From: an uncultured Planctomycetia bacterium
GTDB taxonomy: Bacteria; Omnitrophota; Gorgyraeia; JABMRG01
Direction: 5' to 3'
Assembly (NCBI GenBank): GCA_964634945.1
Contig: CAZWMG010000003.1
Coordinates: 37,861 to 101,860 of the forward strand
DNA length: 64,000 bases
Shown: one piece after another, positions 2,588 through 32,357 of the stretch
Layout: every line of letters starts with the position of its first letter
Numbering within the stretch: the stretch's first letter is position 1
Program-made: the position numbers and the translations under genes
Notes under the pieces: model-generated
Told to the model about the DNA's origin: nothing
Database searches by the model: none
Seen by the model: the letters and a program-made list of their open reading frames with translations, nothing else

Positions 2588-2588
2588 A

Positions 2589-9106: not shown

Positions 9107-9364
9107 TTACAGCTGATCTATATCCTTGTGGAGCCAGTCTCTGCCCTTACTATAAATCTTGCCTGCTTTATCCTCCAACTCAGGAGAGAGAAGGCGTAAA
9201 AGCTCTTTTCCTAAGATACGATACTGTTTACCTACCTTTGCGGTACGTATAATACCCTTTTTGATCAGTCGCATAGTTGTAGATGGGCTCACCTTAAGAA
9301 GTTTTTGAGCTTCCTGTGTAGTATAAACCTCATTTGGATTTATCTCCATTGCCATCTTCTCCAT
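9107..9364 (-). CDS. small helix-turn-helix DNA-binding protein (excisionase/MerR-type HTH)
   Basis: 85 aa. VYTTQEAQKLLKVSPSTTMRLIKKGIIRTAKVGKQYRILGKELLRLL matches the excisionase-family HTH pattern. The true start may be the third Met (MEINPNE), which has a GGAG about 9 nt upstream. Confidence 0.65.
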   Translation of the reverse strand: MEKMAMEINPNEVYTTQEAQKLLKVSPSTTMRLIKKGIIRTAKVGKQYRILGKELLRLLSPELEDKAGKIYSKGRDWLHKDIDQL

Positions 9365-9376
9365 TTTTTGCTGATA

Positions 9377-9405
9377 ATTATAGCAAAACTAGTAACAAAT
9401 GTCAA
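9377..9405 (-). promoter_or_regulatory. near-consensus sigma70-type promoter for the HTH/nonulosonic sub-operon
   Basis: On the minus strand: TTGACA (plus coordinates 9400-9405), a 17 nt spacer, then TATAAT (9377-9382), 12-30 nt upstream of the HTH start codons. A further TTGAC and TAATGAnnnnTAATGA direct repeats lie just upstream at 9406-9437. Confidence 0.5.
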
Positions 9406-9437: not shown

Positions 9438-10925
9438 TCAACTATCTAAATATGGTTTCCCATAAGGTGATTTTTTAGTTACCCTTGATAGGGCCTTTCT
9501 CAATACAAGGATAGGCCCCTGGACCTTTATACTGATTATCAGTTTATTAAGAAAATTTAAGCCGCTAACCTTTAAAAAACGCCGTTTAAGGCGTAAAAAC
9601 CTATGCTTTTGGTATAAATCTTCTCTCACCTCTGCATCCAGACTCTTTTTCAGCCCTATCAGCTCATCATTTGAAAATGCTGTAGTGCAATTTCTGACAA
9701 ATTTAAGCGCGTCACCAGCTGTGGAGAGCTCTTCCATATACTTATCCTCATCTCCAATCTTTCCCATTGACTTCATCTCTTCGTACAACTCTGTTCCCGG
9801 ATATGCTGTAGCAAAAAAGAATGGATTGCTATTATCTCTATATCTATTTATATTCTTATAGAGAGCTGCTGTCTCTTTAACAGACTCTCTATCTTCATCA
9901 GGCAGGCCCAATATCCATGTACCTCCGGGCCTGATGCCGGCCTCAACTGTCCATCGCATTGCATCTTCAACCTGTTTTGGTGTAATCTGCTTTTTAATCC
10001 TCTTAAGCATCCTTGGGCTGCCCGATTCTATGCCATAAGCGACCATTGTACAGCCGGATTTTTTAAATAATGTCAATATCTCCTTATCCACAAGATTGAC
10101 TCTGCCCGTAGCTTTCCATTGCAACTTTAACTTGGATTTAATCAATCTGTTACAAAATTCAATTGCTCTCTTACGGCTTACTAAAAATAGGTCATCATTT
10201 ACAATAAAAGATCCTATCTTATACCGGCGCTTAAGCTCCTCTAACTCCTGCATAATATTATCTACGCTACGCAGTCTGACCTTTGTATCGTATGAACAGA
10301 AAGTGCACTGATATGGGCATCCTCTTCCTGTCGTTATATTCATAGTCCTGCTTGCCTTGAATATATTATTAGGAGGAAATGGAACGCGGGAATATATACC
10401 TTTCGCGTAGAAATAGTCCCACGCCGGAAAGGGAAGAGAATCCAAATCACTTATAAATTCGCGGGTATTGGTAGTTACAAGGGTATCTCCGTCTCTGAAT
10501 ATTATCCCATTTATATTATGAAGAGGTTTATCATTTTCCAACGCGTCCAGCAGCTCAACCATTGTAACCTCTCCCTCTCCAATAACCCCGATATCGACTC
10601 CGCTGTTTCTCATTATCAGCTCCGGGGATGGAGTCACCATATTGCCTCCGCTAATAATCTTTACATCAGGCCTTACTCTTTTTATATCATCCGCGGTCAT
10701 CTTGACAAACTTATAGGCAGTAGCAATACCGCCCATAGCCACAACATCGTATTGAAGTTTGCCAAAGATTGAGATAAGTTCATCACGCGTATATTCAAAA
10801 GCATCCGCGTCAACAACCTGTATAGTATGGCCTTTTCGCAGTAGCATGGCCGCTATATAAGCAGGGCCCATTGCCATTAAATTTCTGCCATGCCTAAATG
10901 GCGGTAGAACAAATAATACTCTCAT
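9438..10925 (-). CDS. B12-binding domain radical SAM protein (class B rSAM), paralogue 1
   Basis: 495 aa. N-terminal Rossmann-like B12-binding region (MRVLFVLPP...MGPAYIAAML...IQVVDA), a CxxxCxxC cluster (GCPYQCTFCS) and the radical SAM core. Confidence 0.8.
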   Translation of the reverse strand: MRVLFVLPPFRHGRNLMAMGPAYIAAMLLRKGHTIQVVDADAFEYTRDELISIFGKLQYDVVAMGGIATAYKFVKMTADDIKRVRPDVKIISGGNMVTPSPELIMRNSGVDIGVIGEGEVTMVELLDALENDKPLHNINGIIFRDGDTLVTTNTREFISDLDSLPFPAWDYFYAKGIYSRVPFPPNNIFKASRTMNITTGRGCPYQCTFCSYDTKVRLRSVDNIMQELEELKRRYKIGSFIVNDDLFLVSRKRAIEFCNRLIKSKLKLQWKATGRVNLVDKEILTLFKKSGCTMVAYGIESGSPRMLKRIKKQITPKQVEDAMRWTVEAGIRPGGTWILGLPDEDRESVKETAALYKNINRYRDNSNPFFFATAYPGTELYEEMKSMGKIGDEDKYMEELSTAGDALKFVRNCTTAFSNDELIGLKKSLDAEVREDLYQKHRFLRLKRRFLKVSGLNFLNKLIISIKVQGPILVLRKALSRVTKKSPYGKPYLDS

Positions 10926-10949: not shown

Positions 10950-12761
10950 CTATATTTTATATATACAGTAATTAAGCCTACGGCCTTTGCGATCTATATA
11001 GGTGTGCGCATAGATAGGTTTTTTATTGGGTGGGAGGATTTTGAATAATTTATCTTTTGAATAAAACGCATTATCAAGATATAAGATATAGTCGATATTG
11101 TATTTTTTGAGTCTATTCAAAAACTTGGGGCTATTAAGTTCTGATTCTGATATCCCATCCTCTTCTATAAGATTTTTTAAATGTATATAGGGCCTATTGA
11201 TATAATATGCCCTTATCTCATTAATCATTAATATTTTGGCATCTTTTGGAATATTATTATTTATATATTCCCCAATATCATAGGTCCTTTCCGCCTCTGA
11301 GAGGTAGGCTTGTCTTGATTTAAGCCTAAGTGGCACCATTGCTTTCTCAGCGCAATGATAGAAAAGTAGGGCAAGATTAAATAAGCAGACAGATAGTAAG
11401 AGCAGCTTAACAAAAGCGGAAAACGGGCCTTTTTCTTTCAGGGTAAACATAAGTCCGCAACCTACAAGAATAGCTAATGGCATAAGTATGGGAAATAAAA
11501 ACCTGACAACAACAGGATCCACAAAAAACCATATCACAAGATAGCTAATGGCAAACATAGCCATAGCCTTTATCTGGACTATACGGTTTTTTAGTGTTAT
11601 TGCCAATGGCAAAAATAATAGATAGGCTACTCCAAAACTCTCTCCACCATGATATTGCGGAAACATTGTAAGTGTCCATGGAAGCCTTATCAGATTAAGT
11701 AAGGAAAATTTACTCGCTATATTATTTTCAAGGCCTCTTGACCATCCATGGTAATTAAAAAACTCCGCGAAAAAAGGATAAAGCGGATTTCCCTTTATAA
11801 CAAAGGAACGAAGATACCATACAAAAGAGCATAGGCCCGTGAAAAATATAAATATCCCCAGGGCTTTGAATAATATCAGAATTCTTTGTTTTTTCTGTAT
11901 ATACAAAAGATATATCACTGCAATAATCAACGCTAACAAGGTAATTACGCCTGTATATTTTATACTTAGCACAAAACCGCAGAAAACCCCTGAAAGCGCA
12001 AGCCATCTGCTTTTCCTTCTTTCCATATATTTAAACAGGCTTAATAGAGCTAAAAAACCATAAAACGCCTGAGGTATGTCTACATACGCGTATGTTATCT
12101 GCGTAAAAATAGCAGGCGTTAAAAAGAAAATAGCCGCTGATATAATGCCTGCCTCTTTTGAGAAACGGTTCCTCACATAAAAATATACAGTAAGCAGTGA
12201 TAGGATACCGAATGAATATGCCATAAGTTTTACAAGAATATCCGAGCCTATGAGCATACAAAGCGCGAATAGACTCTCTATTAAATACGGCCATAGAGAT
12301 TCTCTTGTATATGGAAGATAGGAAAATCTTTGATTCTGAAGGAAAGTCTTCACTTGGACTAATCTATACGCGAGACTATCATTGCCTATCAGCGGCGCTA
12401 AAGTAGCTAAAAAGGTAAATAAGAGCCCTAATAACAGGGCAAGAGATAAGGCCTTAATAAAAAAGGGCATCCTTGTAAACCTAAATTCCCGCAAAGAACT
12501 TATCAGCCGCTTTAAGATATAGATTATCTTTTGGATTGAAATAAACGCAAGCAGTGAAAGAAGCGTTATGACTGATATTTTATTTAGACGGCCTGCTATC
12601 CCTAGAAAAAATACCAAGTAACCTAATATGCCCATTCCCAAGGCTGTGGAAAATACTATTCTTTCATTGGCATATGAAAACTTGAATTTAAAACTGTCCA
12701 GGCAAAACATACCAAAGCCGCAGGAAATCAGCAATATTATTAAGATATAAATTAGTTCCAT
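10950..12761 (-). CDS. polytopic membrane protein, probable GT-C-fold glycosyltransferase with a C-terminal soluble domain
   Basis: 603 aa. More than 10 predicted hydrophobic helices followed by a roughly 120 aa hydrophilic C-terminus. No DE motif. It lies between a B12-rSAM gene and a PMT/ArnT-like gene. Confidence 0.4.
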   Translation of the reverse strand: MELIYILIILLISCGFGMFCLDSFKFKFSYANERIVFSTALGMGILGYLVFFLGIAGRLNKISVITLLSLLAFISIQKIIYILKRLISSLREFRFTRMPFFIKALSLALLLGLLFTFLATLAPLIGNDSLAYRLVQVKTFLQNQRFSYLPYTRESLWPYLIESLFALCMLIGSDILVKLMAYSFGILSLLTVYFYVRNRFSKEAGIISAAIFFLTPAIFTQITYAYVDIPQAFYGFLALLSLFKYMERRKSRWLALSGVFCGFVLSIKYTGVITLLALIIAVIYLLYIQKKQRILILFKALGIFIFFTGLCSFVWYLRSFVIKGNPLYPFFAEFFNYHGWSRGLENNIASKFSLLNLIRLPWTLTMFPQYHGGESFGVAYLLFLPLAITLKNRIVQIKAMAMFAISYLVIWFFVDPVVVRFLFPILMPLAILVGCGLMFTLKEKGPFSAFVKLLLLSVCLFNLALLFYHCAEKAMVPLRLKSRQAYLSEAERTYDIGEYINNNIPKDAKILMINEIRAYYINRPYIHLKNLIEEDGISESELNSPKFLNRLKKYNIDYILYLDNAFYSKDKLFKILPPNKKPIYAHTYIDRKGRRLNYCIYKI

Positions 12762-12771: not shown

Positions 12772-14250
12772 TTATTTTAAAGAAAATATAATATATCTTC
12801 CCTTTTTATGTTCTATGAGACCATAGTTTTCAATCATATATTCCTTAAATTCAGGACTGTTGTTAAATTCATCCATTACAGGGCATAGATAAAAATCCGC
12901 GCCCTCTCCCTTAAGCTTCTCAAGCCTCTTTATAACTTCTTTCGCAGTTGGGCCGCCTCCGCCAGTCAGGTGCAGGCTCCACCCTTTTCTGTCGCAATAA
13001 TAAAGCCCCTGAGGCCCACCCGCTGCGCTTGCTATTATCAGGTCATCTTTATTGGTAATTTCATTTACCCGCTCTCCCGCTTCCTGTAGATATCTATAAC
13101 CTTTAGGAACCACATAAGCATAAGCGGCGTATCTTAACCAAAATGGGAGTATTAAAATAATCAATAACGCCTTTGCCCATCTCTTATTCAAAAGAGTCCT
13201 GGACCAATCAAGTTTTCCCGTAAATACTATTGCCCTTGATATAAATATAGCGAATATAGGAAGCATATTAAGACTATAATATGGGTCTAAGAGATGTGTA
13301 ATAAAACCGATTGAATACACAAGAGCGCCTAAAAGCCATGCCCATATCAGATTTTCTTTGCCCCTTGTCTTAATAAAAAAACCGAAAATCAAAAACGTAA
13401 GCCCTATAGGGGTAAGCAATATGCCGGAGTATATCTCCATAAGCCTTATATAAAAATCTTTACTAAGTAATACAGACAGATCAAACCAGTTGGAGACCTG
13501 AAAATTATACGCCATATTCTGAGTATGCGCTGAATGCACAGACCTTCCGTGTAAAAGCCACAGGATTACGGGAAGAAGCGCTATGGTGAGATAGAGATAG
13601 TTTCTATAATTTAAAAGGAAGCGCCACCTTTCTTTTTTCCATATAAGAAACATAAGGGGTATAAAGATATAAAAAGACTGCGGCTTTACAAGCATTGCTA
13701 TAGAGAGAAAAACCGCGGAGTACAAAAAAAACAGGTTTTTTTTATTATCACAAAAACTAACAAGAAAATATAACGCGCCTAATGAAAAAAAGAGCATCTC
13801 AAAATCAGGCATAAATACCCTGCTAAATATTATAGATAATGGCGATAAGCCAAAAACCAATACCGCCCAGAGAGCATGGGTGCGGTCAAATATCTTTTTA
13901 GTTATAGCGTATAAAAAATACGCTGCCCCAGAAAAAAAGAATATACTAAACAGCCTTCCCACCCACTCATAGACCCCGCCTAAAAGCATATACCCCAATC
14001 CGGCAAGCGCGTTTAAAAATGGAAACTCCAGGACAAGGTATCCTGAAGTAGCCCCAAAATGGTCTACACGCGGATAAAAGATATTTATTCCATACTTAAA
14101 AAAATTACGAGCGATGGAGGCTGTCTGTACCTGGCGCATAGCGGTACCTTCAAGTATAGGCATTGTGATATTAATAAATCTTATACCGATTATCAGCGCG
14201 AAGACTGATAGCAACAGAATTTTTCTCTTATTCCAGATTATATTCATCAT
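12772..14250 (-). CDS. PMT/ArnT-like (GT39/GT83-type) GT-C membrane glycosyltransferase
   Basis: 492 aa. Multi-pass membrane N-terminal region with the first periplasmic loop motif (EGTAMRQVQTASIARNF) and a C-terminal periplasmic domain, as in the PMT_2/ArnT family. Confidence 0.5.
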   Translation of the reverse strand: MMNIIWNKRKILLLSVFALIIGIRFINITMPILEGTAMRQVQTASIARNFFKYGINIFYPRVDHFGATSGYLVLEFPFLNALAGLGYMLLGGVYEWVGRLFSIFFFSGAAYFLYAITKKIFDRTHALWAVLVFGLSPLSIIFSRVFMPDFEMLFFSLGALYFLVSFCDNKKNLFFLYSAVFLSIAMLVKPQSFYIFIPLMFLIWKKERWRFLLNYRNYLYLTIALLPVILWLLHGRSVHSAHTQNMAYNFQVSNWFDLSVLLSKDFYIRLMEIYSGILLTPIGLTFLIFGFFIKTRGKENLIWAWLLGALVYSIGFITHLLDPYYSLNMLPIFAIFISRAIVFTGKLDWSRTLLNKRWAKALLIILILPFWLRYAAYAYVVPKGYRYLQEAGERVNEITNKDDLIIASAAGGPQGLYYCDRKGWSLHLTGGGGPTAKEVIKRLEKLKGEGADFYLCPVMDEFNNSPEFKEYMIENYGLIEHKKGRYIIFSLK

Positions 14251-15656
14251 AGCCCCTTATTATTTAATATCATCTTGCATAAACTCATGGCTGTTGAAAC
14301 ATTCAGCTTCAAGCGGTTATAACTTCTTATGCGCAGCAGCTGCTTTAATATCTTGGTTGGCCTAAAATAAAATTCTCTATAGGCACGTTTCTGTATATGG
14401 AACAGGTCCTCCTGGCTTAAACCGTCAAGGTAATGAATGGGTGGAGTGTGTATCCCATAATTATCATAGTCATGACTCAATAGAAAATCATTATCAAGCA
14501 AATATTGATAAGCCTCTGTGCCTGGGTACGGTTTTAAGATATGAAATTTGGCTATATCAGGATCAAGTCTTTTGGCAAATTCTATGGTCTGCTCCGCTGT
14601 CTCACTATCTTCGCCAGGCAGGCCGAACATAAAGAATGCCCATGTCTCAAGCCCTGCCTGTTTTGCCATATTAAAGGCATCCTCTATCCTGCTTAATGCT
14701 ATTCCTTTTCTGGCCATGTCAAGAACCTTTTGACTTCCTGACTCGACACCTATAGCAATGCTATAAGTGCCCATATCCTTAAGCGATTTCAAAATTTCCT
14801 TGTTTAAAAAATCCGCTCTTAAACCATTCGGGAAAGCGAATTTAACCTTTACACCGCGCTTTCTTATCTCGTCTCTTATGCTAAATACTCTTTCTTTCTT
14901 TGTAACAAAATTGTCATCCCATATATGTATCTCTTTAATTCCGAATTCCTTTTGCAAATATTCTATCTCATCTACAACATTTTCTGCGCTACGGGCCCTA
15001 AAGGCTTTTCCAAATATTGACTGGGCGTTACAATAAGTGCACCTTCCGGGACACCCCCTACTCGTTATTATGGGGGCGGTTTTCGCGTATAAAGAATCGG
15101 GATATGTATAGGATCTGTTTTTGAATAATTTTCTCGCTGGAAGCGGAAGAGCATCTAAATCTTTTATAAGCTCCCTATCGGGATTGGTTATAATCTCATC
15201 ACCTCTTTTAAAAAGTATACCATCCACATGCTCAAGACTTTTATTGCCACTAATGGCGTTTAATAACTCTATAAACGTCTTTTCGCCTTCACCTTTTATC
15301 ACAAAATCTACATCGCGGTGCTTAAGACTCGTTTTCGGCATTACAGAAGGATACATCCCGCCGAAGATAACTTGCACATTAGGCGCTGATCTTTTAGCCG
15401 TATTCGCGGCTTCTAATGAAGAGCTTAACGTAGGCACAGTAACCGTAATGCCAACAACATCAGGGTTTTCATATTTTAACCTATCATAAAGCGTATTTTT
15501 TAAAAGATCCTCCGCATCCACATCTATAATAGAAGCATCATAGCCATTATTTTGCAATACAGCCGCTATATAAGCTAAGCCCATATGCATCTGTACCGGC
15601 GGCTTTAGTTTGCCGTATATATGCTGCTGCGAGGGGTTAATCAATATAACTTTCAT
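14247..15656 (-). CDS. B12-binding domain radical SAM protein, paralogue 2
   Basis: 469 aa. MKVILINPS...MGLAYIAAVL B12-binding N-terminus and GCPGRCTYCN radical SAM cysteine triad. It overlaps the downstream gene by 4 bp. Confidence 0.8.
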   Translation of the reverse strand: MKVILINPSQQHIYGKLKPPVQMHMGLAYIAAVLQNNGYDASIIDVDAEDLLKNTLYDRLKYENPDVVGITVTVPTLSSSLEAANTAKRSAPNVQVIFGGMYPSVMPKTSLKHRDVDFVIKGEGEKTFIELLNAISGNKSLEHVDGILFKRGDEIITNPDRELIKDLDALPLPARKLFKNRSYTYPDSLYAKTAPIITSRGCPGRCTYCNAQSIFGKAFRARSAENVVDEIEYLQKEFGIKEIHIWDDNFVTKKERVFSIRDEIRKRGVKVKFAFPNGLRADFLNKEILKSLKDMGTYSIAIGVESGSQKVLDMARKGIALSRIEDAFNMAKQAGLETWAFFMFGLPGEDSETAEQTIEFAKRLDPDIAKFHILKPYPGTEAYQYLLDNDFLLSHDYDNYGIHTPPIHYLDGLSQEDLFHIQKRAYREFYFRPTKILKQLLRIRSYNRLKLNVSTAMSLCKMILNNKGL

Positions 15657-16366
15657 CTCGTCCTATTTCTTTTGGCAAACAACGCCCAGAAATACCAATG
15701 TAAATAACTTCTAAAAACCTTGCCTAAATTAAAACTCGATACCCCGGCGACCCTATCTTTCCATACAGTCGGTATCTCTGTTATTTTAAAACCTTTCAAG
15801 AAAAGCTTTACCACTATCTCCAAAGAACAGGCAAAACCCGCTTCCTGTATCTCTATGGAATCAAGGGCTTCTTTTCTATACATCTTAAAGGCATTACTTG
15901 TATCATGGGTAGGTATACCTGTTAAAAAACAAAGGCTCAAGCCTGACCATCGCGAAAGCAGGCTCTGCAGGAATCTTCCACCAAGTTTTTTACCGTTTTT
16001 CATATATCGCGAAGCACAGACAACATCATAACCTTCTAATATCTTTTCATACATCTCATTGATGCTATGCGGGTCATCGCATGAATCCGCCATAACCGGC
16101 ACGACAATGTCCCCTTTTGCTTCTGAAAAACCTTTTTTAATAGCATTTGTAAAACCCGGTTCTGTATCATTGTCCACCAAGCGTACATTATTGAATTTTT
16201 GGAAAAGCTTCTTTGCGGCTATAGTAGTATTATCGCTGGAATGGTCATTAACAATAACAACCTCATGCACAACTGTGACAATAGACTCGATGTTAGATAT
16301 TGTTGCAGGAAGCGAAGCCTCTTCATTGTGTGCCGGTATAACTATCGTCAGTTTCATCTGTTTCAT
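15653..16366 (-). CDS. GT2 polyprenol-phosphate sugar synthase-like glycosyltransferase (Dpm1/GtrB/ArnC type)
   Basis: 237 aa. IVIPAHNEE...VIVNDHSSDNT..., the D.D catalytic region, and a length typical of single-domain GT-A Dpm1-like enzymes. Confidence 0.7.
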   Translation of the reverse strand: MKQMKLTIVIPAHNEEASLPATISNIESIVTVVHEVVIVNDHSSDNTTIAAKKLFQKFNNVRLVDNDTEPGFTNAIKKGFSEAKGDIVVPVMADSCDDPHSINEMYEKILEGYDVVCASRYMKNGKKLGGRFLQSLLSRWSGLSLCFLTGIPTHDTSNAFKMYRKEALDSIEIQEAGFACSLEIVVKLFLKGFKITEIPTVWKDRVAGVSSFNLGKVFRSYLHWYFWALFAKRNRTR

Positions 16367-16478
16367 CGATTTAAGGCCTCCGCCACTTTCACAGCTAAGT
16401 AGAGCTTACCGTAGAAAAATATAATTAAAGCTACCCAGATAAGATATAAAAATTTTAAGATAAGTTTTTTTTTCTCTA

Positions 16479-17192
16479 TTAGCATGCTAACCCTCTTTGC
16501 TTAAACAGAAGCAGGCGAAACAGATGCTGCAAATACTTAAACTGTTGGCTTATACTAAGCTTGCCCTTGCCCGCATATCTCTTGCCGAATATTATAGGTA
16601 TCTCAACTATACTTTCAGTGCCTGACTTAACAAGTAACTCAAGTCCTATCTTAAAACCTATCGGGTTTAATATGCCATAATCAGTTATCAGATCTTTACG
16701 AAACGCGAAAAAGCCGGACATCGGATCGCTTACCGTAACAAGCGGGCACGCCAAGGCCCTTGAGACAATAGCATTAATCTTTCTAAAAATTCCGAACCCT
16801 TCTATACTAGCGCCCTTAACAAATCTACTACCTATGCTAATATCGCACTCTTTATCTATTATAGGCTTTATTAATTCCGGTATCTTATCCGGAGGGTGGC
16901 TTAGATCAGCATCCATGACCACCAGCATATCTCCTGTTGACATTCTAAGTCCGTCTATTGCCGAGGCAGATAGGTCTCTCTCGGCTCTTCTTACCTTAAT
17001 ACGCACTGGAAACTTACAGGCCAATGCCGATACCGCGTCACAGATTCCGTCCTTAGAATTATCATCTACTATTACAACCTCGTATTTATAATCAGATATT
17101 AGCATCACGCGATCAATACTTTTTACGAGCAGCTCTACATTACCCGCTTCCTTGTATGTTGGTATTACTATGGATATAAACGGATTTTTCAT
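16479..17192 (-). CDS. GT2 polyprenol-phosphate sugar synthase-like glycosyltransferase (Dpm1/GtrB/ArnC type)
   Basis: 237 aa. ISIVIPTYKEAGNV...VVIVDDNSKDG...VVMDADLSHPP. Confidence 0.7.
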   Translation of the reverse strand: MKNPFISIVIPTYKEAGNVELLVKSIDRVMLISDYKYEVVIVDDNSKDGICDAVSALACKFPVRIKVRRAERDLSASAIDGLRMSTGDMLVVMDADLSHPPDKIPELIKPIIDKECDISIGSRFVKGASIEGFGIFRKINAIVSRALACPLVTVSDPMSGFFAFRKDLITDYGILNPIGFKIGLELLVKSGTESIVEIPIIFGKRYAGKGKLSISQQFKYLQHLFRLLLFKQRGLAC

Positions 17193-18838
17193 AGTTCTTT
17201 TTCTCTTAGGTCATAAACGAATATAGAATAACCCATTTTCGCCTCCGGAGTATAATCCTTGGCCCACTTCACATGATCCAAAAGCTGTACACTTACAGCA
17301 TAGACCTTGCCTTCAGGCTCCGAGTATTCGCTTATTTTTAAAGGGGTCGCATTGATGCCATATGCCGCTGGTGAATCTTCCCCAAAATATTCAAGCGTAA
17401 TCTCTTCTATGCCGTTACCCTTGAGATAGCTTGAAAGATCGGGCAGGTCCTGCCCCCAATCTATGTTAGAATCACGCAGATATCGCCAGCCATTATCAGG
17501 GCCTCCTGCTATTTCATTAAAATAACTTAAAAAATGCGGCCTAATCGCAAGCGCGGAGAAAACAATCCATATACATAGAACCGATATAATAATTTTTGAT
17601 AATCGATATTTAAATAGATCAATGCTTCTTGCCGATATCATAAAACATAAGGGGTATATAGGTAATAGATGCCTGATACCAACCTGGAGGTTGCTGCCTA
17701 AGGCGATAATAAAATATACAAAAAAAGGCACTATTAAAAATAAATCATTCATAGACAATCTTTTCCTGATAGAGACGATCAGGCCCGTTACAAATAATAT
17801 AAGAAAAGGGATAGGCGTTTTAATCAAGAAAGCGACTAAAAAATATAACGGGCTCCCTTTCTGCGACCATTGGCCGCAAAAATATGTCAGGTGCCCTTGA
17901 TGACTGTGCCTTAATACGCCAAAAAACCCGAGTATATGTTCCCCTAAAGGCGTGGGAACTCTCATTAAAAAATATTCCAACGCAGTGTTAGCTGCAGCCT
18001 GATTCAAATGGAACATCTTTCCAATTAGCATTGACGCAAACTTCAGCTTCTCTCCTGCCCTCATAGCGTTTACTAATATAGGCTCTACCCTAAAACCATA
18101 TCCTGCCCAGATAGTAAGGACTGAGATTAAAAAAATAAACCACACCCCTGAAAAACTCGCCCTTTTAAGCATATCCTTGTTTTTGTTTAGAGCTATTATA
18201 TAAAGCATTATAAAAATTGGGTATAAGATAAGCATGGAGTACTTTGACAACTGCGCAAAACCTAAACATAGGCCCGCTAATGCAACGCTCATCTTTTTGG
18301 GATTTTTTAAAAATAACCAAAACGTAAAAAGGCTTAAGGTCATAAAAAACGTTGTTACAATATCAGTTGTCGCCAATCTTGTGTGCGCTAATATGGTAGG
18401 GGAAAAACAGTATATAAAAAGAGCGAAGAATGCCACTTTTTCTCCATACATCCTACGAGACCATATAAATAATAAGAGTCCGAGCATCGTACCAAGCGCG
18501 ATAACAACGAGCCTTGAGGCAAAAAGCATCTGCTTAGAGTTGTTGTTATACTTAAAAAAGAAATCCCTGCTAAATGCCGCCCTGTCCTGATTTCTCCATA
18601 CATTTTTATCCGCGGGCAATACGGGATCTAAAAAAGCTGCTACCGGAGCGGCAACAATATATTTTGGCAAAGGCGGCGAATCGGTCGCCATCTTCAAATC
18701 ACCTTTTTCTATAAATACTACTCCCGGTGGGATATGATGTGCCATCTCATCACAAGTGCCTGACTTCCTTACAATGCTTGAAATTGCTAAGAAAGCAAAA
18801 ATACCCAGCAGTAATACAACTAGCGCTATTCTTTTCAT
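17189..18838 (-). CDS. PMT/ArnT-like GT-C membrane glycosyltransferase (DE motif)
   Basis: 549 aa. N-terminal TM helix, then CDEMAHH in the first loop (the Asp-Glu motif of GT39/GT83), multiple TM helices and a C-terminal soluble domain. Confidence 0.6.
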   Translation of the reverse strand: MKRIALVVLLLGIFAFLAISSIVRKSGTCDEMAHHIPPGVVFIEKGDLKMATDSPPLPKYIVAAPVAAFLDPVLPADKNVWRNQDRAAFSRDFFFKYNNNSKQMLFASRLVVIALGTMLGLLLFIWSRRMYGEKVAFFALFIYCFSPTILAHTRLATTDIVTTFFMTLSLFTFWLFLKNPKKMSVALAGLCLGFAQLSKYSMLILYPIFIMLYIIALNKNKDMLKRASFSGVWFIFLISVLTIWAGYGFRVEPILVNAMRAGEKLKFASMLIGKMFHLNQAAANTALEYFLMRVPTPLGEHILGFFGVLRHSHQGHLTYFCGQWSQKGSPLYFLVAFLIKTPIPFLILFVTGLIVSIRKRLSMNDLFLIVPFFVYFIIALGSNLQVGIRHLLPIYPLCFMISARSIDLFKYRLSKIIISVLCIWIVFSALAIRPHFLSYFNEIAGGPDNGWRYLRDSNIDWGQDLPDLSSYLKGNGIEEITLEYFGEDSPAAYGINATPLKISEYSEPEGKVYAVSVQLLDHVKWAKDYTPEAKMGYSIFVYDLREKEL

Positions 18839-21063
18839 ATCCTGATACCAAAATTTGGTTTATATTTAAAAACGACTCTATGCCTTCCCGCTTTTACGAA
18901 TACGCCCTGCACAAGCCCGTTAATCTCCAATAAATCATCTCTTTCACCATCAATAGATACTGACCAGCCGGGATAATAATTTTCAGAAAATATTAAAAAA
19001 CCATTCTTTCTAGCATCTATGTCCACTTCGCAATAACCATCCGTATATTCTACTAACTTAACATCGCAGGCTTTACTTGAAGTAATAGTCCCTTCTATGT
19101 CAGTTGTAAAGAAAACCCTTGGAAGGTAATTATTGAGCTCATAAAGAAATAAGCTTTCATCCCGGACAATCGGTTTAAGAAAACCATAATCCAATTCTCC
19201 CACAGATACTACATACTTAACATTTAGCAGTCTGAGATCCTGATACTTGTTCACAAGAGAATCTTTTGAAGGTTTTAAAACGCCTAAGGCATTATCAACC
19301 GCCTCCAGGCCAAAGAGACGCGTAACGTAGGACTCCTCAGCAAGCGGAGTATAGGCAGCCACACTATCAATATTAGCCAGAATATTCGTATTAGGCATTG
19401 CCCAATTTGACAGCTTCTCATCCGTTAAATCAAAAGGCAGCACCCTAAAGAGTCCATTATCTGTGCTTAAAACTGATAACGCACTGCTCTCTCTTGGTTT
19501 AGCAAAACTAAAGCTTATATTATTGGTAAATCCTGTTCCGTAAAAGCTGTAAACATATAGGTCAATAAATATCAGACAAAAAATCGGTATCTTAAGCCTG
19601 CTTACCTTACCCGGATTTTTATATATATAAATACACGCAAGTAAAACAATAACAACCATTGCCAAAGAAAAGATAATAAAAAAGTCATTTAAGGATACGC
19701 TTTCAACGATTGACTGATATATGCCCTTTATCCTACCCATATAACTATCCAGGCTGTATCTGTGATGCGGCTTACCGTAAATGTATTTCAATATATAGCT
19801 CCGCGATAAAGCTAATATCTGATCCTTAAAGATAATCAAAAAAACCTTTGACGCGAAAAACATAGCTATAAAAGACGCTAAAATTATACCTAAAACTTTT
19901 GTCACGACTTTTATGTGTTTGTTGTTACGCTCTATAAAAAACCTGCTAAAGCCTACGCCTGATATAATAGACACGCAGAATATCGTAAAGAAGAGAAACT
20001 TTGACGGGTTTCTGAAACTGTAAAATCCCGTTACCTTAAGCATTAAAACATATAATGGGTTATACTTTCCTAGCGCCGCGAGAAAAGCAAGAAGACCTAT
20101 AGCTATGAGCACTTTTATAGCACGGTTCTTTCTATGGCATATAACTCCATAAAGAAGGAAAATTAGGCTAAATACTCCTATAAAAAGCCTCTGGCCTAAA
20201 AAGCTCAACCATTTAGGATAAATAATATTAAACAAGGATATCGGTGAAAATGACTTCCATAACGCGAAGCCTAAAGTTGAAGACGTTCTCGCGGTTGCCT
20301 GCGCGAGATTATAGGTAAGTAAAAGCTGCGGCATAGCGATAACAATCGCTAGCAGAGAAAAAACAAAAATCGCTAAAATGCTCTTTTTTAGAGCTATACG
20401 CTTAAGGTAAAGACTGTATGCCATATAAATTAAATAAAAACCAAACGAATATGCCGCCAATTGTATAAAGCCCGCTAAAAATTGCATACCAACTACAGCA
20501 CCGGCTATAAGAATATAAAAAAGCTTTTTGGTGCTTATGAAATATTCAAAAAGAAGCAAAACAAGCGGAAACCAGATAAGTGTTCTTAAGGTAACAACAT
20601 TGTAAAAAGCGCCCGCATAAGCACTGCCAAAACAGAACAATAAAGCGGCAAGAGATCCTCCCCACTGATCAGCGCCGACTTTTCTTGAATAGGCGTATGA
20701 AAAACACCCTGCCAACACGAAGTGGAGTATAATAGAATAATTATAAGCAAATTTAAATGGCAACAAAAAAAACATCACTATATTTAAAGGATAAAACCCG
20801 CCTACCTGCCCTTCCGCCATTAAGGGAAACCCGCTATGAAAATACCTGCACCAAAAAGGAAAGCAGAAATTCTTAATAGACTCTGCATACACCTTGAGCC
20901 AAGGATAGAACTGGGCAAGAAAATCACCTTTAAGCATAGCCTCCTTCATGAGGATCTGCTTACCCAAAAAAACAAACATAGTGAGGGTAAAGAAAATCAC
21001 AAAACCATAATTATGCCTTAATATTGTTTTTACACGACTAGCTATTGTTAACTTTTTACACAT
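18835..21063 (-). CDS. YfhO-family polytopic membrane protein (GT-C glycosyltransferase)
   Basis: 742 aa. The N-terminal DFLAQFYPW...GFPLMAEGQVGGFYPLNIVMFFLLP fits the YfhO family pattern. More than 12 TM helices and a large C-terminal extracytoplasmic domain. Confidence 0.55.
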   Translation of the reverse strand: MCKKLTIASRVKTILRHNYGFVIFFTLTMFVFLGKQILMKEAMLKGDFLAQFYPWLKVYAESIKNFCFPFWCRYFHSGFPLMAEGQVGGFYPLNIVMFFLLPFKFAYNYSIILHFVLAGCFSYAYSRKVGADQWGGSLAALLFCFGSAYAGAFYNVVTLRTLIWFPLVLLLFEYFISTKKLFYILIAGAVVGMQFLAGFIQLAAYSFGFYLIYMAYSLYLKRIALKKSILAIFVFSLLAIVIAMPQLLLTYNLAQATARTSSTLGFALWKSFSPISLFNIIYPKWLSFLGQRLFIGVFSLIFLLYGVICHRKNRAIKVLIAIGLLAFLAALGKYNPLYVLMLKVTGFYSFRNPSKFLFFTIFCVSIISGVGFSRFFIERNNKHIKVVTKVLGIILASFIAMFFASKVFLIIFKDQILALSRSYILKYIYGKPHHRYSLDSYMGRIKGIYQSIVESVSLNDFFIIFSLAMVVIVLLACIYIYKNPGKVSRLKIPIFCLIFIDLYVYSFYGTGFTNNISFSFAKPRESSALSVLSTDNGLFRVLPFDLTDEKLSNWAMPNTNILANIDSVAAYTPLAEESYVTRLFGLEAVDNALGVLKPSKDSLVNKYQDLRLLNVKYVVSVGELDYGFLKPIVRDESLFLYELNNYLPRVFFTTDIEGTITSSKACDVKLVEYTDGYCEVDIDARKNGFLIFSENYYPGWSVSIDGERDDLLEINGLVQGVFVKAGRHRVVFKYKPNFGIRI

Positions 21064-21074: not shown

Positions 21075-22478
21075 TTAACCTTTCTGCAAAACTACCGAGA
21101 ATATTCTTTTAAACAAGAATTTGACTTGCGTCCAGGTTCTTATGCTTGATAAAAACCTAAAAAATATACTTGGCCTTAAGTAAAAAGAGAGTGTAGCTCT
21201 CTTCTGAAGGTCTTTCATCTCTTGCGAACTTATCAAACCTGCTGACCATGAAACCTTATCATAATTAAATGTATTCCAATTAAGCTCACCTAATTTGCCC
21301 TCGGTTTTTAATTTATCGTATATGGGCGTTCCTGGATATGGCTTAAATATATTAAACGAGGCATAGGTCAATGGAAGTTTTTGAGAAAACAAAATAGTCT
21401 TTTCTACATCATCCGCTGTCTCTGTCGGGTATCCTATTATGAAAAAACCCATAGTATTTATGCCTACTTCATTAATCAATCTTACTTTTTCATATACGCT
21501 CTCTAGTGTCTGCGCCTTTTTCATATCATCCAATATCCTCTGGCTTCCGGATTCTATGCCCAGGCTAAAAGAATAGCAGCCCGCTTCTTTCATCTTCTCA
21601 AGCAGCTCTCTATCCAGAGTATTCAGGCGCACCCCCTGGGGAAGTGCCCAGTGAAGCTTAAAAGGCAACTCTTTTATTTTCGAACAAACCTCTAAGACAT
21701 AATCTTTTTTCAATGTAAAATTATCATCCTCAAAATGAACTTCACTAACGCCAAAATTATCATGCAGATATATTATCTCGCTTAAAAGATTGCTAACGCT
21801 TCTGTATCGTAATTTTCTGCCTGTAACCAGCTTGCCACAGCAAAAGCTACATTCAAAAGGGCAGCCCCGCGTAGCCATAATAGGCGCTGTTGGGAAACTC
21901 TTCAACATAAAACCCTGAGGCGCCGGGGGATAATCATTAGGATCCAGCAGGTCCCACGCGGGGAAGGCTAAACTATCCAGGTCGTCACAGATACTTCTTT
22001 GATTTACAACAACAGACTCTTTATTGCGCCAGACAAGATTATCTATCCCCTCTAATGTCTCATCACTTAAGCGTCCTTGGGCGATAACCTGTACAAGCCT
22101 TGAAAGCGGTGCTTCACCTTCGCCGTAAATAACAAAATCCATCTTATCCATATAATCTAGGGTCTGTTTTGGGTTACATGAAGGATGCGGCCCGCCTGCT
22201 ATGGTTATTATCTCTTTATCGAGCCCCTTTATAAGCGCTGTAAGCTCTTTTACATTATCCAGATCTTTTGTAAATATCTTAAAACCCACTATATCAGGAC
22301 CGGTCTCTTTGATATATCTCAATAAGGCAGCATTATCCATATTCTTATTTACGCAATCAATGATATCCGTCTCATAGCCTTCTTTGCGTAACATGCTGCC
22401 GAGATAACCCAAGCCGATATCCGGTGTTATCTGATATGCCTTGCTAAAAGGTAAAACCAGCAATACTCTCATAATCAA
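21075..22478 (-). CDS. B12-binding domain radical SAM protein, paralogue 3
   Basis: 467 aa. MIMRVLLVLP...LGLGYLGSML B12-binding region and GCPFECSFCC. Confidence 0.8.
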   Translation of the reverse strand: MIMRVLLVLPFSKAYQITPDIGLGYLGSMLRKEGYETDIIDCVNKNMDNAALLRYIKETGPDIVGFKIFTKDLDNVKELTALIKGLDKEIITIAGGPHPSCNPKQTLDYMDKMDFVIYGEGEAPLSRLVQVIAQGRLSDETLEGIDNLVWRNKESVVVNQRSICDDLDSLAFPAWDLLDPNDYPPAPQGFMLKSFPTAPIMATRGCPFECSFCCGKLVTGRKLRYRSVSNLLSEIIYLHDNFGVSEVHFEDDNFTLKKDYVLEVCSKIKELPFKLHWALPQGVRLNTLDRELLEKMKEAGCYSFSLGIESGSQRILDDMKKAQTLESVYEKVRLINEVGINTMGFFIIGYPTETADDVEKTILFSQKLPLTYASFNIFKPYPGTPIYDKLKTEGKLGELNWNTFNYDKVSWSAGLISSQEMKDLQKRATLSFYLRPSIFFRFLSSIRTWTQVKFLFKRIFSVVLQKG

Positions 22479-23497
22479 TTCAGCCTTATCTCTTTAATAA
22501 AAGTTTTAATATCGCGTATATTCTTTACTGAAACGCCTAAGAATGTCTTTTGCCACAAAAAATCACACTCTGCGCACATAGCTACAGACTTGTACTCTTT
22601 ATCGCGAATCTTTTTTCGTAATGACCGCATCTTTTCAGAATTCCACGCATCCGATAATGAAATATCCTTAATATTGCCTAATGGGTATTCCTCAAAAAAA
22701 TTGACACAACATGGGACAATTGTTCCATCCCATAAAATAGTAAGCGTAAACCAAAGATAAGGACACGGAAGATACTTTACCTTCAAAAAACTGCTCTTTA
22801 CCTCTCCGCTATAAGCATAATCCGAACCCGTTATATCTTGATCTATCTTACCCCCAAAGCGGTGAGGTTTTATTATCCTAAAATCGCTGATAGGCAGGCC
22901 TTTAAATCTCATCGTAAAATCGGCTCTTTGTCTTTTATTTGACGCGCTTGCCTCAGTCTCTATCACCTGAATAAGCGTGTAGGGTTTTCTGGATCCAATC
23001 TCCTTTTTTGCATCTAAAAAACCTAATATATTTGACCGCGTCTTTTCATACTCTCCGCCTTTTCTTATTTTTTCATAAGCTGACTTTGTATAACCATCAA
23101 AAGAAAAAGATATAAAATCCAGGCCTGATCTTATAATCTCTTCAGCCTTGGCCCTGTCAAGGAGCGTAGCGTTGGTCTCAAGCCTTATTCTTAAGCCCCT
23201 TGATTTCGCGTAACGTATCATCTCAGGCAGGCCTTTATGCAATAACGACTCGCCTCGCATGAAAAGATTTATATCCATAACAGAACCGCTTGCCTGATCT
23301 ATTATATTTCTATAGGTATCTAACGACATAAAACCTACGGGCAGCCGCTCTTTCATAACCCTGTTTGGACAGATCGGGCAGCTTAGATTGCAGGAATTTG
23401 TAGGCTCGATCCATAACCGTGTAGGCATAGACTGACAATTAATATCTCTTCTTCTGTATTGCGAAAAAGTTTTGTAGATTCTGCCTATCTTAGTCAA
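22475..23497 (-). CDS. radical SAM protein with C-terminal SPASM/twitch-type auxiliary cluster domain
   Basis: 340 aa. The CNLSCPICP radical SAM triad near the N-terminus and a C-terminal Cys-rich region (CCVNFF...CAECDF). Its ATGA overlap with the upstream B12-rSAM suggests translational coupling. Confidence 0.7.
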   Translation of the reverse strand: MTKIGRIYKTFSQYRRRDINCQSMPTRLWIEPTNSCNLSCPICPNRVMKERLPVGFMSLDTYRNIIDQASGSVMDINLFMRGESLLHKGLPEMIRYAKSRGLRIRLETNATLLDRAKAEEIIRSGLDFISFSFDGYTKSAYEKIRKGGEYEKTRSNILGFLDAKKEIGSRKPYTLIQVIETEASASNKRQRADFTMRFKGLPISDFRIIKPHRFGGKIDQDITGSDYAYSGEVKSSFLKVKYLPCPYLWFTLTILWDGTIVPCCVNFFEEYPLGNIKDISLSDAWNSEKMRSLRKKIRDKEYKSVAMCAECDFLWQKTFLGVSVKNIRDIKTFIKEIRLN

Positions 23498-23504: not shown

Positions 23505-25217
23505 CTATCTCCTTTTGTACAGTATCAATATGGGCCCTGATCTTTTACGTGTTAATATATTTTCACTCGCGAATCCCGCGGCGGTTGGCGAAAAAAAACT
23601 CACCTTATTCATGCCTGTCTTGTTGTCTTTGAACGGGTTAAAAACCTTGGACACTTTGTAGTGCTGATTCAGGGCATTGTAAAACTTTCCTTCAAGCTTA
23701 AATTCCGGATATGGTTTCCATGCAAAAACATAACTTATATCCTCGTTTAGCAGGCTCATCGCATCCATATCAAGGGCCGGGTAACCACTGAAAATATCCT
23801 GGCCCAGCGAGCCGGACTCATAGATGTAATAAGGCCGATATCTAGCAACATTGGTTTTCGCTAATCGCAGCATCAATTCAATCTTCTTGGCTCTCGCGGA
23901 TGATAAGGCCTCCGCGGAGTCTAAATATTCTCTCTTATCCCTAATCTGGTCGATCGTGGGCTTAAGTTGCGGAGAAAAAAAAGTATGCGTCATCGCTATT
24001 TTTTCTCCCTCAGGGACATTCTCTTCTACATATTCGCTTGCCTCTCTCCTTGTATCTGTACTGCTAAAGAGATAATCCGTATATACGCTCATTAAGAGAG
24101 GCTGCAATAAAGCAATAACAGCAATAACATAGAGCAGGGATCTTCTCTTCTTGTATATACCGCCAATGGTTGCGCATCCTACTCCGGAGAATATCGCCAA
24201 TAAGGGGATTATGGGAATTATGTAGCGCTCATGAGGTTGGCCACAATATACTATTGAAACATAATAAACAGCTAAAAATGATATTAGTATAATAGCCTTG
24301 TTTCTATACTTATAAAGAGCGAATATTGTACCTACAGCAACCAATATAACCTGGGCAAGCCCCATACCCCCTACAATAGAATGTCTCAGGTGATGATAAT
24401 AACCTGTAAAACCCACTACCGAGGCCTGTGCCCTAAATGTAGTTAAAAAACCCTTAATATCTAACAATAGAAAAGGGTTGTATAGAAAGAATATCACCAA
24501 AAACGCAGCTACACAATATGCGATCCTAATATCAAAAATTATACTCCTTAAAGAGCGTCCCTCTTCTTTTGTTTTGAGTATATGAGCGCAAAGAATCGGA
24601 ACAACCAATATAACGGCATTATACTTAAATGCCGTCGCTATCGCCGCCATGATACCCGATATTATATAATCTCTGATTCGTGCCTTATCGTAAATATTAT
24701 AAATCCAGAGAAATGACAATGATATAAAAAGCGCCATTGGTATATCATGCCACGCGTAATGGCTGTTCCTAACATGCAGAAAATTTACAGATAAAAAAAG
24801 AGCTGATAGCATCCCGACTCTTTTGGAAAAACAGCGCTTGCCTAACAGATAGGCAGGTATTATGGTAAGCGAACCCATAATAGCGCCTGTTGTTATTCTA
24901 GCTATGATATAAAAACTAGTTGGATTATTTAGAAAAAGCCTGACAAAATCCATGGTATTACTAAACATGCCCATGCATAGACCAATTATATAATAAAGCC
25001 CGAACTCTAAAAGCAGTAAATAATACAACAGAGCCGGCTTCCAAAACGCGTGCGGATTAAGATCCCCCTGCCCCATGGCCATAGCCATATTTATAGCTGT
25101 GGGTTCATCAGCATGAAAGAGATCCGGCAGTCCAAAACCTATACCCCAGACTCTGAGTACAAAACCAATCAGGATTATCGCGAAAAGCATATAAAAGCTC
25201 TGCCTGTTTTTAGTCAT
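23505..25217 (-). CDS. PMT/ArnT-like GT-C membrane glycosyltransferase (DE motif)
   Basis: 570 aa. The first loop LFHADEPT carries the DE motif. More than 10 TM helices and a C-terminal soluble domain. Confidence 0.6.
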   Translation of the reverse strand: MTKNRQSFYMLFAIILIGFVLRVWGIGFGLPDLFHADEPTAINMAMAMGQGDLNPHAFWKPALLYYLLLLEFGLYYIIGLCMGMFSNTMDFVRLFLNNPTSFYIIARITTGAIMGSLTIIPAYLLGKRCFSKRVGMLSALFLSVNFLHVRNSHYAWHDIPMALFISLSFLWIYNIYDKARIRDYIISGIMAAIATAFKYNAVILVVPILCAHILKTKEEGRSLRSIIFDIRIAYCVAAFLVIFFLYNPFLLLDIKGFLTTFRAQASVVGFTGYYHHLRHSIVGGMGLAQVILVAVGTIFALYKYRNKAIILISFLAVYYVSIVYCGQPHERYIIPIIPLLAIFSGVGCATIGGIYKKRRSLLYVIAVIALLQPLLMSVYTDYLFSSTDTRREASEYVEENVPEGEKIAMTHTFFSPQLKPTIDQIRDKREYLDSAEALSSARAKKIELMLRLAKTNVARYRPYYIYESGSLGQDIFSGYPALDMDAMSLLNEDISYVFAWKPYPEFKLEGKFYNALNQHYKVSKVFNPFKDNKTGMNKVSFFSPTAAGFASENILTRKRSGPILILYKRR

Positions 25218-31693: not shown

Positions 31694-31885
31694 TTAAAAG
31701 AGCGTGTAAATAAACGGTGCGACTGCTGAAGATTCAGTAAAAATAATTAGAAACCCTAAGAGCAACAATACAATAATAATCGGGGCAAGCCACCAACGTT
31801 TTCTCACCTTCATAAAATCCCATAGTTCTTTCAATACGCCTATCTTTCCCATGTTATTCTCCTTTATTACAGTTAAAAAGTTCAA
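31694..31885 (-). CDS. small single-TM protein of the carbamoyltransferase-associated family (SxtK/DUF5989-like)
   Basis: 63 aa. [51 protein letters not shown] is the conserved pattern of the small protein that accompanies NodU/CmcH-type carbamoyltransferases. Confidence 0.55.
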
Positions 31886-32317: not shown

Positions 32318-32318
32318 C

Positions 32319-32354: not shown

Positions 32355-32357
32355 ATA

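Follow-up and report, generated by a model that had tools for sequence, protein, structure and literature searches.

Gene content of the locus

The window considered here is the whole stretch of DNA that was analysed, 64,000 nucleotides (64 kb) from an uncultured bacterium of the Omnitrophota, and part of it is occupied by closely packed minus-strand genes for predicted membrane glycosylation enzymes. Five of these genes, at 14247-21063, had been presented by an initial annotation as one translationally coupled unit, in which two glycosyltransferases of the GT2 family supply a PMT-type and a YfhO-type transferase. The coordinates of the five open reading frames (ORFs) are exact, and Pfam agrees with the families as they were named. 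They are listed below with two further features, a small ORF lying among them and the next gene downstream, which falls beyond the range described originally (aa, amino acids; SAM, S-adenosylmethionine; GT-C, glycosyltransferase of the C type).

12772-14250, minus strand: GT-C492, PMT_2-type GT-C of the accessory cassette, 492 aa, Pfam PMT_2 (2.5e-16)
14247-15656, minus strand: B12b, B12-binding radical SAM protein of the cassette, 469 aa, Pfam B12-binding (1.2e-21) and Radical_SAM (1e-25), CxxxCxxC motif present as CPGRCTYC
15653-16366, minus strand: GT2_15653, 237 aa, Pfam Glycos_transf_2 (5.6e-27)
16363-16485, minus strand: single-pass membrane mini-ORF of 40 codons with a W-x7-Y motif, MLIEKKKLILKFLYLIWVALIIFFYGKLYLAVKVAEALNR
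16479-17192, minus strand: GT2_16479, 237 aa, Pfam Glycos_transf_2 (3.5e-26)
17189-18838, minus strand: GT-C548, PMT_2-type GT-C, 549 aa, Pfam PMT_2 (4.1e-12) and PMT (5.3e-10)
18835-21063, minus strand: YfhO-family GT-C, 742 aa, Pfam YfhO (50.0 bits)

Three junctions within the five genes are 4-bp overlaps (15653/15656, 17189/17192 and 18835/18838), as had been reported. At the fourth, the two GT2 genes stand 112 bp apart (16367-16478), and the mini-ORF fills this interval; its overlap is 7 bp (ATGCTAA) at the upstream stop codon and 4 bp (ATGA) at the downstream start codon, and because the ORF overlaps both neighbours, coupling within the five genes is more complete than had been stated. 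Coupling also continues outwards, as the gene for GT-C492 overlaps that for B12b by 4 bp and the gene upstream of the YfhO-family gene begins 11 bp off. Among the 54 same-strand junctions of the window, 10 are 4-bp overlaps, 25 show an overlap of any length and 42 are spaced by no more than 15 bp. Tight spacing is thus the norm in this window, so the coupling is real, yet it marks out no five-gene unit.

A conserved backbone and an inserted cassette

A scan of species-representative genomes yielded 28 loci, nearly all of them in metagenome-assembled genomes of Omnitrophota (individual loci are denoted by L numbers). Related genomes share a backbone, conserved across the phylum, with the order GT2 (of the type encoded at 27257 in the window), GT-C570, YfhO-like protein, GT-C548, in some cases the mini-ORF, GT-C603, HTH_17 protein and nonulosonic-acid genes. 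In 12 of 19 informative loci, GT-C548 comes directly after the YfhO-like gene, and in nearly all others it is within a few genes of it; GT-C570 directly precedes the YfhO-like gene in 10 of 18. In most related loci the 27257-type GT2 gene is found ahead of GT-C570, and GT-C603 orthologues come after GT-C548 and the mini-ORF. A GT2 gene directly after GT-C548, as in the window, was seen in only two of 12 loci, and a search of related genomes for the same order of all five genes found it in none of the 19 informative loci.

These comparisons bear directly on the model of the initial annotation, according to which the five genes are self-contained and the two GT2 enzymes make two lipid-linked sugars, used by GT-C548 and the YfhO-like protein, respectively. 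The genes are indeed adjacent and overlapping, both GT2 proteins resemble donor synthases, and orthologues of GT2_16479 are always located somewhere inside the YfhO/GT-C548 backbone locus, so that GT2_16479 may well feed one of these two enzymes. However, the YfhO/GT-C548 pair is conserved without these GT2 genes, its usual GT2 partner being the upstream 27257-type gene, whereas GT2_15653 co-occurs with B12b and GT-C492 (in L010 and in other contigs) rather than with the pair. Together with the missing gene order, the rarity of a GT2 gene after GT-C548 and the coupling that passes both ends, this makes the self-contained model quite improbable.

The five genes are instead an internal slice of an operon of about 20 kb, which joins parts of two separately evolving modules. 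The slice takes in the backbone pair, the mini-ORF and a donor gene of variable position, but only two of the three genes of an accessory cassette. Judged by its gene order, the locus as a whole would thus be a backbone module carrying an accessory cassette.

The cassette, formed by GT2_15653, B12b and GT-C492, is a recurrent one that has been inserted in the backbone. Both its order and its place in the window are repeated in L010, which reads GT-C548, mini-ORF, GT2 (353 bits), B12 enzyme (661 bits), GT-C492 (542 bits) and GT-C603; in L036, GT-C548 is followed by the GT2 (338 bits) and the B12 enzyme (699 bits), after which the contig ends. Orthologues of GT2_15653 adjoin B12b in L010, L036, L041, L047, L048 and L049, among others. 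When neighbours were counted for B12b orthologues scoring at least 350 bits, a short GT2 without transmembrane (TM) helices was directly beside the orthologue in 10 of about 19 informative loci, and a protein with at least six TM helices came directly after it in seven of 18; those of the following proteins that were tested (in L049, L053, L058 and L060) are PMT_2 proteins. On the acceptor side, GT2_15653 and B12b probably have GT-C492 as their actual partner. A clade-specific signature is also shared by the GT2 proteins concerned: in GT2_15653, the D-A-D motif of Dol-P-mannose synthase (DPMS) and GT2_16479 is replaced by x-A-D-x-x-D (here MAD), in which the first Asp is lost and a new Asp is gained three residues on, and this form is kept across the GT2 proteins that adjoin B12b orthologues (L010, L036, L045, L047 and L054), which suggests co-adaptation with B12b.

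It could be argued that the B12-binding radical SAM enzymes have nothing to do with the tailoring of sugar donors, and that they act on the isoprenoid carrier or another membrane lipid, or are functionally unlinked insertions. The best family likeness of B12b is consistent with such a role, since its top NCBIfam match is HpnJ (228 bits against a cut-off of 577.6), accompanied by BchE, HpnR and the ladderane enzyme, all of them lipid- or tetrapyrrole-acting proteins and all below their cut-offs; in addition, about half of the B12b orthologues occur in other contexts and the number of B12-binding radical SAM genes varies between loci. Matches in the PDB comprise an uncharacterised protein (9ccb, 1.9e-30), the sugar-acting AprD4 (6.9e-21), TsrM, CysS and TokK. 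Against this explanation, B12b overlaps both the GT2 and the GT-C gene by 4 bp, and the order GT2, B12 enzyme, GT-C recurs in distant metagenomic contigs, so we regard it as improbable and favour a role of the cassette enzyme in tailoring a sugar.

A different neighbourhood was observed for the B12b orthologue of L038, which is 58% identical: directly upstream of it (115-4178, plus strand) lies a pair of large proteins that resemble TMTC proteins in architecture, having about 9-11 TM helices each and TPR repeats at the C terminus.

Two candidate donor synthases

Both GT2 proteins of the slice are similar to polyprenyl-phosphate-sugar synthases rather than to processive GT2 enzymes, as had been suspected, with dolichyl-phosphate-mannose (Dol-P-mannose) synthase as the nearest relative, followed by GtrB and ArnC. 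For GT2_16479, the best solved relative is the Pyrococcus Dol-P-mannose synthase 5mlz (E 1.7e-53, residues 5-230 against 24-249), with 44% identity over 223 aligned columns, and the protein carries the DAD motif ("MDADLSHPP"). GT2_15653 matches 5mlz (1.4e-26), GtrB (1.4e-15) and ArnC (5e-12). At the level of NCBIfam, hits to PgfS, ArnC, Dol-P-hexose transferase, AglJ and PpgS all score 50-80 bits, against cut-offs of 325-529.

A hydrophobic segment is absent from all five short GT2 proteins of the window, including these two, each of which has 237 aa and no TM helix. In this they match the TM-less class of such synthases, which includes human DPM1 and the catalytic domain of mycobacterial Ppm1. 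GacI is another TM-less synthase with the GT-A fold (PMC8035078).

Orthologues of GT2_16479 are annotated as polyprenol monophosphomannose synthase, and its nearest relatives (50-57% identity) are fusions of about 360 aa with a GtrA-like PF04138 domain that is missing in the window protein. No orthologue was present in the 28 GTDB loci; in other genomes, orthologues occupy three different positions inside the same backbone locus. From homology and position, GT2_16479 is probably a mobile extra donor synthase that makes polyprenyl-phosphate-mannose and serves one of the backbone GT-C enzymes. The two GT2 proteins are only 27% identical to each other, which, combined with their different DXD motifs (DAD and MAD), makes two different donors plausible. 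The earlier claim of two lipid-linked sugars is therefore plausible as far as the divergence of the synthases goes, while the part that had them feeding the PMT_2 and YfhO enzymes as one unit finds no support.

Acceptor-side enzymes of the backbone

The 742-aa protein passes the YfhO profile of Pfam (PF09586) with 50.0 bits, against a gathering cut-off of 28.5 (E 2.1e-13). The match consists of two stretches, the best of which covers only C-terminal residues 659-738, and 25 of 34 homologues match the same profile. The membrane part can be reached by transitivity: a profile of the window family matches relatives P0250 (1.6e-111) and P0137 (1.7e-169) over profile positions 8-646, and these two, with P0171 and P0256, align to positions 3-595 of the 835 in the YfhO model, so the N-terminal membrane domain is also homologous to YfhO. 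In an AlphaFold2 (AF2) model (predicted local distance difference test, pLDDT, 86.7; predicted template-modelling score 0.87), about 13 TM helices are followed by a beta-rich C-terminal domain at about 540-740, which ends the protein with no terminal TM helix after it. This domain, of roughly 235 aa, is a candidate for the periplasmic C-terminal domain that had been expected of a YfhO-type enzyme. The best solved matches of this model in Foldseek are all GT-C enzymes (ArnT, AglB, STT3, PglB, AftA, Emb and DPY19), with probability 1.0 and template-modelling scores of 0.3-0.47. The family keeps D47, Q51, P54 and W55 of the first periplasmic loop without variation. An NCBIfam search gave no match for this protein.

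The suggestion that a YfhO-family protein is uncommon in a diderm organism appears weak. Omnitrophota are presumed to be diderm bacteria. More than 250 scored homologues of the 742-aa protein, full length and 42-76% identical, were obtained, nearly all the named ones being "YfhO family protein [Candidatus Omnitrophota bacterium]"; an NCBI record and a Logan contig each carry the protein with 100% identity. With a profile built from 34 family members, the number of cluster representatives reached at E <= 1e-3 is 49,699. In Omnitrophota, YfhO-like proteins are commonplace. The Pfam YfhO family already listed members from Bacteroidetes in 2018 (PMC5836110). A literature search on YfhO in Omnitrophota returned nothing relevant.

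GT-C548 matches PMT_2 with 47 bits and PMT with 39.7 bits, and the DE motif attributed to it is real: D30 and E31, within 'SGTCDEMAHH' directly after the first TM helix and hence in periplasmic loop 1, are invariant in 39 homologues. With its AF2 model (pLDDT 92.4), Foldseek places ArnT of family GT83 first (5f15/5ezm, E 2e-8, template-modelling score about 0.5), AglB next and Pmt4 fifth. Pfam detects no MIR domain, which eukaryotic PMTs have in loop 5, and the model shows just a C-terminal alpha/beta domain of about 110 aa. The label "GT39-like" is supported by the Pfam matches and the DE motif, but ArnT is a slightly better structural match than the PMTs, so that the label holds at the Pfam level and membership in the family is not established. 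Sequence searches of the PDB with the YfhO-like and PMT_2 GT-C proteins gave no matches.

These properties also raise the question of protein O-glycosylation, in which the PMT-like and YfhO-like enzymes would mannosylate Ser/Thr residues of secreted or surface proteins, as Pmt does in Mycobacterium and Streptomyces with polyprenyl-phosphate-mannose made by Ppm1, instead of decorating a polysaccharide or lipopolysaccharide. The PMT/PMT_2 matches, the invariant DE motif of loop 1 and an adjoining TM-less GT2 of the Ppm1/Dpm1 type would all fit, as would the presence of Pmt4 among the best structural matches and of two Wzy_C proteins (WaaL/PglL family) in the window. On the other hand, ArnT, a lipid A transferase, outscores the PMTs, the MIR domain is missing by Pfam, and six GT-C genes beside genes for undecaprenyl-diphosphate-linked (Und-PP-linked) glycan, Wzy_C proteins and nonulosonic acids look more like glycan elaboration. 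Protein O-glycosylation is accordingly an unlikely role, and elaboration of a surface glycan is preferred.

In loci of the Ca. Orphnella type, a GDSL/AlgX-like protein, possibly an O-acetyltransferase, is encoded between GT-C548 and a Dpm1-like GT2 (L118, 6564-7646; L119, 5721-6803).

A conserved membrane mini-protein

Single-pass ORFs homologous to the mini-ORF, 35-56 aa long and with the same W-x7-Y motif, occur after GT-C548 in L008, L009, L010, L012, L014, L022 and L029. They always head the block whose last gene encodes GT-C603, and in most related loci they lie between two GT-C genes, not beside a GT2. No Pfam match was found for the mini-ORF. By analogy with GacJ, and similarly with human DPM3, the product may serve the TM-less synthases, or else the GT-C enzymes, as a subunit or membrane tether. 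The ORF is often missed by gene callers, for example in the NCBI record behind L004, where it is uncalled. A 51-aa ORF upstream of GT-C566 in L116 was considered as a further homologue and rejected, as it is a GT2 fragment.

Proposed function

We consider it moderately likely that the operon running from 29348 to 9438 on the minus strand serves glycosylation at the periplasmic side of the inner membrane, and that it consists of the backbone and the inserted cassette, with polyprenyl-phosphate sugars loaded by GT2 enzymes being used by six GT-C enzymes. In such a pathway, the TM-less cytoplasmic GT2 proteins would move single sugars from nucleotide sugars to polyprenyl phosphate, a flippase encoded outside the window would flip the lipid-linked sugars, and the six GT-C enzymes (one of the YfhO type and five of the PMT_2 type) would pass them to a surface glycan or glycoconjugate, whose Und-PP-linked core and nonulosonic acids may be made by the rest of the window. 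The B12 enzyme of the cassette would most likely tailor a sugar, either as the nucleotide sugar or on the lipid carrier, for transfer by GT-C492, and accessory cassettes would in this manner add further, probably tailored, sugars. The analysis establishes gene identities, folds, motifs, synteny and modularity; homology and synteny are the grounds on which we propose the donor sugars, the sequence of the steps, what the B12 enzyme acts on, and the acceptor.

Several observations weigh against this interpretation. Neither a flippase of the GtrA, Wzx or MurJ family nor an unassigned polytopic protein is encoded in the 64-kb window, so that one component of the three-component paradigm is missing here. 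The functional assignments are all based on homology, NCBIfam scores being far under every equivalog cut-off, and nothing in the sequence identifies the acceptor. In addition, B12b, GT2 and GT-C are associated in only about half of the loci, close B12b orthologues in L038-L043 sit in unrelated contexts, and the promoter and terminator scans of the array report consensus matches only.

A more specific proposal can be attached to the cassette. The GT2, B12-binding radical SAM and PMT_2 GT-C proteins might constitute a new kind of four-step periplasmic glycosylation module, in which the B12 enzyme C-methylates or rearranges a sugar on polyprenyl phosphate, a dedicated GT-C delivers the unusual sugar to the surface of these Omnitrophota nanobacteria, and the 40-aa mini-protein tethers the synthases or the GT-C enzymes. 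This is speculative, and we think it rather unlikely. A literature search found no description of a role for B12-binding radical SAM enzymes in polyprenyl-linked sugar or GT-C glycosylation.

The surrounding array and glycan island

The array from 29348 to 9438 is uninterrupted on the minus strand. Its six GT-C genes are those of the PMT_2 type at 27969, 23505, 17189, 12772 and 10950 and that of the YfhO type at 18835; its short GT2 genes are at 27257, 26511, 16479 and 15653, a fifth being encoded on the plus strand at 34903, and its B12-binding radical SAM genes are at 21075, 14247 and 9438, with a fourth at 62203. Apart from the genes listed above, the following features, all assigned by Pfam, make up the array and its downstream border.

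9107-9364, minus strand: HTH_17 protein, 85 aa (E 9.5e-14)
9438-10925, minus strand: B12-binding radical SAM protein, last gene of the array, 495 aa, 28-32% identical to the other two B12 enzymes of the array
10950-12761, minus strand: GT-C603, backbone PMT_2 GT-C, 603 aa
21075-22478, minus strand: accessory B12-binding radical SAM protein
22475-23497, minus strand: SPASM radical SAM protein
23505-25217, minus strand: GT-C570, backbone PMT_2 GT-C, 570 aa
25210-26514, minus strand: amine-oxidase-like protein of the flavin adenine dinucleotide (FAD) type
26511-27224, minus strand: GT2 at the head of the array
27257-27979, minus strand: backbone GT2 of the 27257 type
27969-29348, minus strand: PMT_2 GT-C at the head of the array

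GT-C570 and the YfhO-like gene are separated in the window by the B12 enzyme at 21075 and the SPASM protein at 22475, both of which most loci lack; the closest relative, L008, has only the SPASM gene of the two. The FAD oxidase at 25210 shows weak similarity to structures of the protoporphyrinogen-oxidase type. Paralogues within the array are old. Recent tandem duplication of the GT2, GT-C and B12 genes was rejected, since identity amounts to only 24-41% among the GT2 proteins and 28-32% among the B12 enzymes, and the GT-C proteins barely align.

The array contains 18 terminator-like sites where 16.3 would be expected, which is no enrichment, and the sole perfect sigma-70-like promoter (9405-9377, 12/12 with an extended TG) comes just after its last gene, ahead of the HTH_17 gene. 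Nearly all related loci likewise have the HTH_17 gene at this point, with the GT-C array on one side and the nonulosonic-acid genes on the other. Consensus matches and conserved gene order thus place a predicted transcription-unit boundary between these two groups of genes at 9107-9405. Just upstream of the first array gene (27969-29348), an 83-aa LexA-type winged-helix DNA-binding protein with no peptidase domain is encoded at 29353-29604 on the minus strand, and similar genes are found in L009 and L011.

The whole 64-kb window is one surface-glycan island. Its remainder encodes a WecA-like GT4 enzyme, a PglF/WbpM-type dehydratase, GT1 and GT2 enzymes, two Wzy_C-family proteins (WaaL/PglL family), NeuB, three cytidylyltransferases, a carbamoyltransferase and an adenosine 5'-phosphosulfate (APS) kinase. 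The density of radical SAM genes is unusually high for a polysaccharide locus, as three B12-binding and two SPASM genes are present beyond B12b (9438-10925, 21075-22478, 22475-23497, 38188-39312 and 62203-63705, all on the minus strand). A gene at 7118-7909 (minus strand), lying among those for nonulosonic acids and aminotransferases, encodes a protein that matches the MbnB/TglH/ChrH family, which modifies ribosomally synthesized and post-translationally modified peptides (PF05114, E 5.6e-13), as well as TIM barrels of the xylose-isomerase type. At 31694-34772 on the minus strand, the carbamoyltransferase (609 aa) is followed by a 144-aa ORF with three TM helices and a DUF5989 mini-protein, with the APS kinase just upstream; the trio also occurs in L009, L021 and L022, and these genes and the APS kinase suggest carbamoylated and possibly sulfated sugars. 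The otherwise unidirectional cluster is broken by its sole plus-strand block, at 34903-38179. Encoded there are the fifth of the short GT2 proteins, which shares 41% identity with GT2_27257, an AAA ATPase of the DUF4143 type, and a protein of 437 aa for which Pfam gave no match.

Significance

Omnitrophota are abundant, uncultured and very small bacteria. A locus conserved across this phylum suggests that elaboration of their envelope glycan takes place largely outside the cytoplasmic membrane, where four to six GT-C enzymes would draw on lipid-linked monosaccharides, a style that is best known from mycobacteria and from the wall polymers of Gram-positive bacteria. The most interesting elements are the recurrent GT2/B12-binding radical SAM/GT-C cassette and the conserved 40-aa membrane mini-protein. 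That B12-binding radical SAM genes repeatedly stand between those for a donor synthase and a GT-C points towards tailoring of the sugar, a step of a kind that our literature searches found nowhere described for lipid-carrier glycosylation. Should this interpretation fail, what is left is a surface-polysaccharide operon of large size but conventional kind.

Relation to known systems

The locus is a variant of known multi-component transmembrane glycosylation systems. In Firmicutes, CsbB/GtcA/YfhO and GtlA/GtcA/GtlB glycosylate teichoic acid (PMC5836110, PMC8035078), and the pairs CsbB/YfhO and GtlA/GtlB resemble the window in placing a GT-A/GT2 gene for an undecaprenyl-phosphate (C55-P) sugar beside an extracytoplasmic GT-C of the YfhO or PMT_2 type. 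However, CsbB and GtlA have two C-terminal TM helices, whereas the window GT2 proteins have none, and the Firmicutes systems include a GtrA-type flippase, which the window does not encode. The YfhO protein of B. subtilis comprises 13 TM helices, a 389-aa loop and then a last TM helix (PMC5836110), unlike the window protein, in which a shorter beta domain (about 235 aa) stands at the end with no terminal helix. The host is also a presumed diderm without teichoic acids, and its operon, with six GT-C enzymes and radical SAM genes, differs from the Firmicutes systems in composition.

The GacI/GacJ/GacK/GacL system of Streptococcus pyogenes, which adds the GlcNAc side chain of the group A carbohydrate (PMC8035078, bioRxiv 10.1101/180810), combines a soluble TM-less GT-A synthase (GacI), a small membrane protein (GacJ) and a PMT_2 GT-C (GacL), and thereby matches the TM-less GT2, mini-ORF and PMT_2 genes of the window; the mini-ORF has no detectable homology to GacJ, so that a role as GT2 partner would be drawn by analogy only. 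In mycobacteria, polyprenyl-phosphate-mannose made by Ppm1 is used by the GT-C mannosyltransferases PimE and MptA/B/C, beside the Emb/Aft arabinosyltransferases (PMC3485146, PMC12041525). There, a TM-less Dpm1-type synthase feeds several GT-C enzymes, and the Omnitrophota backbone likewise has one conserved GT2 and three or four GT-C genes; orthology to the window genes holds at the family level only, and the window genes are gathered in a single operon that adjoins genes for Und-PP-glycan and nonulosonic acids.

Modification of O-antigen by GtrA/GtrB/Gtr* proteins in Gram-negative bacteria relies on a GT-C that adds single sugars in the periplasm, after assembly, from undecaprenyl-phosphate sugar, and the Xylf/Araf pentofuranose variants possess an extra epimerase acting on the lipid-linked sugar between synthase and GT-C (PMC11127046). 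Tailoring between synthase and GT-C is the logic proposed here for GT2_15653, B12b and GT-C492, but the tailoring enzyme of the window is a B12-binding radical SAM protein, and its synthase is TM-less and does not depend on phosphoribosyl pyrophosphate. Cobalamin-dependent radical SAM enzymes that rearrange or methylate a lipid-linked sugar after a glycosyltransferase are represented by HpnI/HpnK/HpnJ, for the hopanoid cyclitol ether, and by MoeK5, for moenomycin (PMC9204698). HpnJ is the best NCBIfam match of B12b, yet the score stays far below the equivalog cut-off, and no hopanoid genes are found near B12b in the window. The presence of a GT-C after B12b implies that the modified sugar is handed on, rather than kept on the lipid as in the HpnJ system.

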